Shown: piece after piece, positions 41,216-42,764 of the stretch
How the letters are laid out: the number at the start of each line of letters is the position of its first letter
How positions within the stretch are numbered: position 1 is the first letter of the stretch
Assembly (NCBI GenBank): GCA_951406725.2
Contig: OX597838.1
Location: forward strand, 38,192,001-38,256,000
DNA length: 64,000 bases
Reading direction: 5' to 3'
DNA from: Octopus vulgaris
Taxonomy: Eukaryota
The notes under the pieces: generated by a model
What the model saw: the letters and a program-made list of their open reading frames with translations, nothing else
Told to the model about the DNA's origin: nothing
Database searches by the model: none
Position numbers and translations under genes: made by a program

Positions 41216-41854
41216 ATGAAAATGGACACCACATGAGGGATGTTGTTTTCCACACTTGATTTTTGACAAATGCTAATTCAATACAGAAACACTAATGTCA
41301 ATAACATTTGCAGCTAACATCAATGATTCTGTGAATTTTTAGAAAACGTCCGTTCTCTCTACCCCACCCTATATATATATATATATTTATATATATATAT
41401 ATATATATATATATATATATATATAATATATATATATATATATATATATATATATATATATATATAAATATTTCAACATTTGAGGGTAAAATTAATTAAT
41501 TATTAATCAATTTCACCAAGTATTCAGTATGTAAAGGGACCATTTAAGGCGAATTCAAATTATTACATTATATAAAAGGGCTTAGTAAAATAAATTACTT
41601 TGCCACATACTGAACTCATTAGAAATAGCAGCTAAAAAAATTTTTTAAAAACTATTTCTAATATTTAAAGAAAATCTCTCTCATATAGTGTTTGCTCAAG
41701 TCAACTCACGAAGGTATGGGGGTAAAGACATTAAAAAATCACAAATGCAAAGGTTATTTGAGAACGTACGTTTCGAGCAGATCTTCAGAAGTGATAAGAA
41801 GCCAAAAGGGTATGCTCCCACTTTCAGTGTTCCCAAATCCGAATCAAGGAGTTC

Positions 41855-41906
41855 TGAGCTGACGAAAGAAATGTCGATTTGACTAATCTAGAAACGTACG
41901 TTCTCA
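41855..41906 (+). ncRNA. Type I hammerhead motif, copy 1
   Basis: tgag-CTGACGA-a-aga..gtc gattt gac..tct-a-GAAA-cgtacg-TT-ctca; predicted cut after 41902. Confidence 0.8.
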
Positions 41907-42414
41907 AATAACCTTTGCATTTGTGATTTTTAATGTCTTTACCCCCATACCTTCGTGAGTTGACTTGAGCAAACACTATATGAGAGAGATTTTCTTTAAG
42001 TATTAGAAATAGTTTTAAAAAAATTTTTTTAGATGCTATTTCTAATGAGTTCAGTATGTGGCAAAGTAATTTATTTTACTAAGCCCTTTTATATAATGTA
42101 ATAATTTGAATTCGCCTTAAATGGTCCCTTTGCATACTGAATACTTGGTGAAATTGATTAATAATTAATTAATTTTACCCTCAATTGTTGAAATTATAAT
42201 TCATTTCTCTCTATTTAATGCTTCGGTTTTTACCGATAAAACATAGTGTTTACCAATTTTAACCCACGCTGGTGGAAAGGGGAGAGCAGAAATTCTTCGC
42301 TTGCATATTTTGAATTTGCTAGCACTGATAGTTCGAGCAGATCTTCAGAAGTGATAAGAAGCCAAAAGGGTATGCTCCCACTTTCAGTGTTCCCAAATCC
42401 GAATCAAGGAGTTC

Positions 42415-42466
42415 TGAGCTGACGAAAGAAATGTCGATTTGACTAATCTAGAAACGTACGTTCTCA
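42415..42466 (+). ncRNA. Type I hammerhead motif, copy 2
   Basis: Identical to 41855-41906; predicted cut after 42462. Confidence 0.8.
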
Positions 42467-42764
42467 AATAACCTTTGCATTTGTGATTTTTTAATGCCTT
42501 TACCCCCATACCTTCGTGAGTTGACTTGAGCAAACACTATATGAGAGAGATTTTCTTTAAGTATTAGAAATAGTTTAAAAAAAATTTTTTTAGATGCTAT
42601 TTCTAATGAGTTCAGTATGCGGCAAAGTAATTTATTTTACTAAGCCCTTTTATATAATATATATATAAATATATATATATATATATATATATATATATAT
42701 ATATATATATATATATATATATATATATATATATAATATTATATATGACAATTAGTTGGTTGTC

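Follow-up and report, generated by a model that had tools for sequence, protein, structure and literature searches.

A tandem hammerhead repeat family in Octopus vulgaris with the insertion footprint of Penelope-like elements

Non-LTR retrozymes of animals have been described from coral, mussel and axolotl, with RNAs of 170-400 nt on northern blots and, as the earlier report from a mollusc, a mussel retrozyme of 350-390 bp (the sections of PMC7229834 cited here). A wider range of 51-972 bp, with a mean of 650 bp in ray-finned fish, is given in the cited part of a preprint that argues for retrozymes as non-autonomous derivatives of Penelope-like elements (PLEs), and that reports homology to a pLTR in 21 of the 57 families from Xenopus and cleavage in vitro for one of nine predicted dimers, the other eight remaining uncleaved (Li, Clavereau and Pollet 2026, bioRxiv 10.64898/2026.07.22.740005). 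PLEs themselves carry a tail of 30-40 bp which, in the portions of PMC3846280 and PMC8557442 drawn on here, is optional or often present at one end. In vitro, two internal start sites delimit this tail and the protein cuts and extends both strands, with no strand difference in start site seen in the Anolis PLE assay (PMC11167929).

Mobilisation of animal retrozymes by PLEs has so far been argued from co-occurrence and pLTR similarity. Here we describe an element within a window of 64,000 nt (the whole stretch of Octopus vulgaris DNA that was analysed) in whose relatives the footprint of mobilisation is visible on the retrozyme copies themselves, in numbers sufficient for statistics. By the sequence-level definition, the element is likely to represent a real, young and abundant non-LTR retrozyme family. 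Our literature search, with Repbase, Dfam, subscription journals and paper supplements outside its scope, found neither a cephalopod retrozyme nor the pairing rule for 3' ends described below; the family may already be present in Repbase, Dfam or paper supplements.

The insertion and its hammerhead motifs

The element lies between two (TA)n target microsatellites, at 41370..41469 on the left (where the repeat tract reads to 41471) and at 42662..42746 on the right (where it reads from 42651). It begins with an inverted arm on the minus strand (41470..41774, unit positions 549-560 and 1-292), the outer end of which is a long, or 'B', 3' end (near unit position 296) and the inner end a random 5' truncation. 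This arm is 97.7% identical to 41888-42194, stops at the GAAA, 12 nt short of the cut, and meets the direct arm head to head through a 3-nt ttc microhomology (41772..41774). The direct arm, on the plus strand, comprises a 5'-truncated first unit (41772..41902, unit positions 430-560), a complete non-coding unit of 560 nt (41903..42462, 33% G+C), which is the predicted monomer or circle, and a partial third unit (42463..42661, unit positions 1-198) that terminates at a short, or 'A', 3' end. Within the complete unit, a conserved multi-stem RNA domain (41982..42212, plus strand, unit positions ~80-310) includes both 3'-end sites, of which A lies near 42100 and B near 42198. The two type I hammerhead motifs are identical and lie on the plus strand at 41855..41906 and 42415..42466, with CUGACGA cores at 41859 and 42419 and predicted cuts between 41902 and 41903 and between 42462 and 42463.

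This layout bears out the first-pass annotation, which had proposed two identical type I motifs 560 nt apart, near-identical repeats, a 305-nt inverted arm with its GAAA end and ttc junction, and insertion into (TA)n. The direct repeat (41772-42100 against 42332-42661) is 98.5% identical, and the four pieces of the locus show six differing sites, homopolymer runs excluded. The same annotation had seen no coding sequence between the motifs, in agreement with a longest stop-free frame of 60 codons on the plus strand of the direct arm and with a tblastn comparison in which four PLE proteins of the same genome gave no match to the element at 41470-42661.

Other features of the window lie close by or further off. 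A broken PLE-like coding remnant stands to the left of the element (40584-41200, plus strand), and its 122 related matches in the genome are all old and divergent. Just to the right (42772-42836, minus strand), a hammerhead-like motif with G12 changed to A ends in the same TA run and probably represents the 3' end of a different PLE family. The window also holds the broken ends of two other PLE ORFs (58740-59710, plus strand; 29653-29820, minus strand), a dispersed repeat with a tandem duplication of 183 nt (2840-3207) and an exact 50-nt tandem duplication (43981-44080).

Each motif presents the canonical type I core (CUGANGA, GAAA, NUH) together with stem I: downstream of CUGACGA come 25 nt of the stem II region, then GAAA, a helix III that is palindromic and a GUU triplet, and stem I pairs UGAG with CUCA. 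GUU is a slower cleavage triplet. The core is intact in 191 of 198 junction sites of the sampled loci, duplicates included. Where the canonical type I hammerhead has a paired 10.1-11.1 base of stem II, typically G-C, the octopus element described here has an A-A mismatch, and other subfamilies of its lineage (F1) show U-U, U-A, A-U or G-U. The Rfam search that the first-pass annotation had proposed recognised neither motif, returning no match at gathering score over the whole 64,000-nt window and, with E up to 10 over 41400-42750, only three chance matches, no hammerhead among them. In addition, minimum-energy folds predict a core that is paired with helix III and leave the active core unformed. 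A short palindromic helix III is a known mark of ribozymes that cleave as dimers, according to the cited sections of PMC4209133 and PMC7229834. A further candidate, the minus-strand CUGAAGA...GAAAC at the inversion junction, was rejected as a ribozyme, being without a matching stem I.

Read-through transcription had been expected to release a 560-nt monomer from this locus, and here the predicted folds point the other way. In a transcript started upstream, the inverted arm is predicted to pair with three parts of the first ribozyme, its GAAA, its cut site and its stem I, and to bury the GAAA and cut site in the duplex; in predicted folds that omit the inverted arm, stem I is kept in both ribozymes. 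Because the arm is predicted to mask the first ribozyme, a monomer would be expected from the locus at 41470-42661 only if transcription started inside ~41775-41850.

Copies in the genome and their ends

The genome was searched over 2.8 Gb in 227 contigs, and labels of the form L### denote sampled genomic loci. A search with the unit gave 182 matches in the best 40 of 1,835 candidates, dispersed over many large contigs, and units stand head to tail with nothing in between in arrays of up to 13 full units. A 31-nt pattern across the cut-site junction has 362 exact matches against none for its reversed control, and a motif common to the unit and its sister lineage F2 has 4,208 against none. The copy-number check suggested at first pass therefore reveals a multi-copy family. 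Contigs of independent public runs (one for each of five species labels, with two contigs for label E) likewise show the unit's end connected to its start. Contigs over the unit also occur in runs X1, X2 and X10, which may be RNA but may equally be DNA, and which as contigs carry no information on ends, strand or level of expression. The family is neither chance nor the assembly artefact that the first-pass annotation had allowed for, because the junction pattern gives 362 matches against 0 and the same junction recurs in these independent runs. The loci sampled were 48 from the first 100 junction matches in genome order, together with 30 best-match loci, arrays and motif loci; duplicates (L024, L027 and overlapping motif loci) were removed before counting.

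A footprint set of 80 loci provided 136 3' ends, which fall into two classes 98 nt apart, A at about unit position 198 and B at about 296. TA-rich flanks surround 128 of the 136, and in such flanks a target-site duplication, longer than 4 bp in non-LTR retrozymes where there is one, is unreadable. The 5' ends are randomly truncated, and paired arms are inverted head to head. The 56 two-armed insertions divide into 50 with one A and one B end, a single A+A reading and five with one off-class end, such that A+B accounts for 50 of 51 classifiable cases (P = 2e-14 under independent choice). Even in the lone A+A reading (L076) a B piece is present, separated by an insert, and in one of the off-class cases (L065) the A end exists in an alignment below the identity filter. 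One-armed loci number 24, 17 with A and seven with B, and include L019, which has a B arm of 25 nt that falls under the length cut-off. Three sister lineages show the same two ends and no A+A among 45 two-armed cases, of which two have both ends at or past B and about eight are unclear, the F3 and F4 end sets having been picked with a query that favours B ends.

Taken on the copies themselves, this footprint of fixed 3' ends, random 5' truncation, inversion and TA targets strongly indicates mobilisation by PLE machinery, as the first-pass annotation had suggested. The pattern is known in kind; what is new here is the strictness of the A+B rule and the 98-nt length that separates the two ends. 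At four loci (L207, L091, L098 and L198), templated pieces of the unit of 50-120 nt are inserted at the head-to-head junction.

Lineages, RNA fold and the copied template

Four lineages, F1 to F4, have units of 560, 599, 556 and 601 nt that are colinear across their whole length, with F1 and F3 only 61% identical. F2 is represented in the window itself by an insertion at 60740-61585 with a unit of ~600 nt, inverted A+B arms in (TA)n, an intact core at 61324, a G-C stem II base and a 27-nt tandem repeat at its junction. F3 is exemplified by L280:1419-1974 (plus strand, 554-556 nt) and F4 by L307:1194-1794 (minus strand, 601 nt), each of these two lineages having ~2,000 first-look candidates, which are not copy numbers. 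The stem II base is G-C in F4 as well as in F2. Stem I covaries among the lineages (UGAG/CUCA, UAUG/CAUA, UACG/CGUA) and core position 7 varies freely. F3 has U3-A8 in its core instead of the C3-G8 pair, the importance of which has been confirmed (PMC11167929).

The F1 unit folds more strongly than its shuffles (z = -6.2), and unit positions ~73-313 more strongly still (z = -7.75). The 80-310 domain folds strongly in every lineage (z = -3.6 to -8.6, 40 shuffles), with closing stems that differ in sequence. Across 21 copies from F1, F2 and a few more divergent sources, 98.5% of 756 cells are paired, and two-sided changes occur in five of 36 pairs, above all slid controls, a covariation signal that reflects a few lineage splits and not 28 independent events. 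Because the closing stem has its 3' strand past site B, the whole domain is found only in a complete unit. We infer that the reverse transcriptase binds the 80-310 domain and starts there, and this covarying region of 230 nt would then be a compact candidate for an RNA element that recruits the enzyme.

The ends and variants of the copies also bear on the nature of the template. A cleaved linear monomer as the main template was rejected, because its 5' ends would cluster at the cut, yet among 183 arms those that stop no more than 15 nt away number 12, with 10.1 expected. Divergence has a median of 0.35% within an insertion (83 loci) and 0.42% between opposite arms (59 loci), compared with 6.0% between loci, and both arms therefore usually derive from one RNA or one source locus. 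In only 52 of 83 loci, however, are the units of an insertion closer to one another than to the nearest other locus, and six more are ties. Among 28 well-covered insertions, six carry variants that are fixed in all their units and absent from the other 112 sampled loci. Long arrays of different subfamilies are near-uniform, with five variable sites in 3,441 bases at L066 and three in 5,401 at L206. The lack of a 5'-end pile-up at the cut, together with the near-identity of the arms, is compatible with a circular template, and the uniform arrays and privately fixed variants suit repeated copying of a monomer circle, although the source of the apparently private variants could be parent loci outside the sample. 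A single monomer circle does not explain the two-variant mosaics L068 (which switches inside units), L029 and L081, nor the period-3 variant pattern of the 13-unit array at L065:2056-9335; copying may instead involve uncleaved multimers and template jumping.

The family is non-coding and bears a hammerhead motif in each 560-nt unit, and on balance we consider it probable that it spreads through an RNA, probably a circle, which a borrowed Penelope-type enzyme copies into (TA)n. In this model, a multimeric transcript would cleave itself, the double hammerhead being the probable active form, before a host ligase would close the monomer into a circle. A dimeric PLE protein would then bind the folded domain and cut both (TA)n strands, with one cDNA primed at site A and the other at site B. 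Each cDNA would extend round the template and across the ribozyme junction to a length that varies at random, before the two are joined head to head via a short microhomology. The A+B rule, the near-identical arms and the absence of stops at the cut site lead to predictions for the in vitro PLE system that already exists, namely asymmetric twin priming and copying over more than one unit length of a circle. A bolder version, which we hold to be doubtful, describes at least four circular-RNA parasites that form an old clade of their own, with a shared folded enzyme-recruiting domain that has no sequence counterpart in any helper PLE and with asymmetric A/B priming by a PLE dimer on one circle.

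The units could instead be a non-autonomous PLE passenger copied from linear, uncleaved multimers, with arrays built by template jumping or local duplication and circles rare or irrelevant. This is unlikely in our estimation. In vitro the Anolis PLE works mainly on uncleaved RNA, and cleavage is dispensable there (PMC11167929), the hammerhead motif of the octopus unit is atypical, and the flat distribution of 5' ends suits uncleaved templates equally; template switching in mosaic arrays such as L068, and the period-3 pattern in L065, point in the same direction. However, the core and stem I have been kept with compensatory changes over four lineages as far apart as F1 and F3, the near-uniform arrays L066 and L206 are as expected of a monomer bottleneck, and linear copying by itself only shortens arrays.

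Coding partners and comparison with known systems

The first-pass annotation had recognised that the unit might always be the terminal repeat of a coding PLE. The sampled loci are made up of unit pieces only, and none of the 48 genome-order junction loci has an ORF continuous with a unit, giving an upper 95% bound of ~6%. Matches to four PLE proteins occur in nine of 114 unit loci, none of them continuous with a unit and the two most suggestive being separate insertions, and the arrangement that defines an autonomous PLE, an ORF for RT and GIY-YIG between pLTRs, was not found in these loci. On present evidence the unit is not a stub or terminal repeat of a coding PLE in the copies examined, none of which reaches an ORF.

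The same genome contains intact PLE ORFs of two kinds, a 781-aa family with RT and GIY-YIG and a 741-aa lineage, and its PLE proteins fall nearest to protein clusters from animals in general, molluscs included. Both are inserted in (TA)n with two ends of their own and tails of ~33 and ~157 nt, respectively, and neither has sequence in common with the unit. The search with the GIY-YIG family gave 148 matches among the best 150 of 6,136 candidates, and no partner was found through this family, two further PLE lineages, the coding remnant beside the element, the loose ends of DNA contigs or lineages F2, F3 and F4. A partial census took in 159 loci that surround matches to GIY-YIG or PLE proteins, and there a profile of the unit, from which one wrongly picked alignment row was left out, found only apparent separate nested insertions: matches in L124, L174, L303, L019 and L023, checked base by base, are separate insertions in TA runs, and those in L038, L057, L256, L267, L348 and L375 were assessed by coordinates only.

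Two observations on these PLEs are worth recording. The intact 781-aa family apparently has a U3-A8 core, like F3 (L063:4270-4330, L038 and L040-L042), which is possibly a hint of a helper or possibly convergence. The 741-aa lineage (L227, L229 and L236) is inserted in (TA)n with two fixed 3' ends that are ~157 nt apart; like end B, the longer one has a hairpin and then ~15 nt that terminate in AAAT, with no sequence that can be aligned.

It is very improbable that the units are pLTRs of an unsampled autonomous PLE and that the locus is an ordinary 5'-truncated copy. A tandem and inverted layout with a tail is indeed the normal one for a PLE, and a rare coding member can escape searches in which only the best 40-150 candidates were scored; against this stand the genome-order loci, none of which enters an ORF, the succession of complete units head to tail without a spacer, the colinearity of the whole unit in four lineages, and the different 3' ends and tails of the coding PLE lineages examined. 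Least credible of all is an in-place satellite, a Helitron-like repeat or a collapsed assembly repeat with an incidental hammerhead, which would account for head-to-tail arrays in AT-rich DNA and for variants common within L065 and L207, suggestive of some local exchange, but is largely refuted by the end pattern of fixed 3' ends, random 5' ends and head-to-head inversions, by the dispersal of copies over many large contigs and by the unit junction in contigs of independent runs.

The reading of a hammerhead-bearing RNA copied by a borrowed PLE enzyme places the family between three described systems. With non-autonomous Chlamys elements such as MRC1 it shares non-coding passengers, pLTRs and multicopy head-to-tail insertions, whereas those elements have a 3' end like that of their autonomous partners and a hammerhead is missing from most Chlamys, in the cited sections of PMC8557442. 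With animal non-LTR retrozymes it shares a type I hammerhead in each tandem unit, non-coding units with a G+C content under 50% (33% here), dispersed dimers to multimers and co-resident PLEs, and the first-pass assignment to this type of unit holds. The accompanying remark that the unit is larger than animal retrozymes stands against the 170-400 nt RNAs shown by northern blot in the cited part of PMC7229834 and fails against the 51-972 bp range in that of bioRxiv 10.64898/2026.07.22.740005. The family differs from these retrozymes further in that a PLE footprint can be read on its copies, no pLTR-homologous partner was found, and the element is known here from its sequence.

The likeness to EN+ PLEs, as the cited sections of PMC3846280, PMC8557442 and PMC11167929 describe them, extends to 5' truncation, head-to-head inversion and (TA)n targets, to a tail carried by one arm, and to a palindromic helix III and two internal start sites for reverse transcription. 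Unlike EN+ PLEs, the octopus unit has no ORF, its tail measures ~98 nt rather than 30-40, and the combination of one arm with a tail and one without, optional in the PLEs of those sections, is here nearly obligatory.
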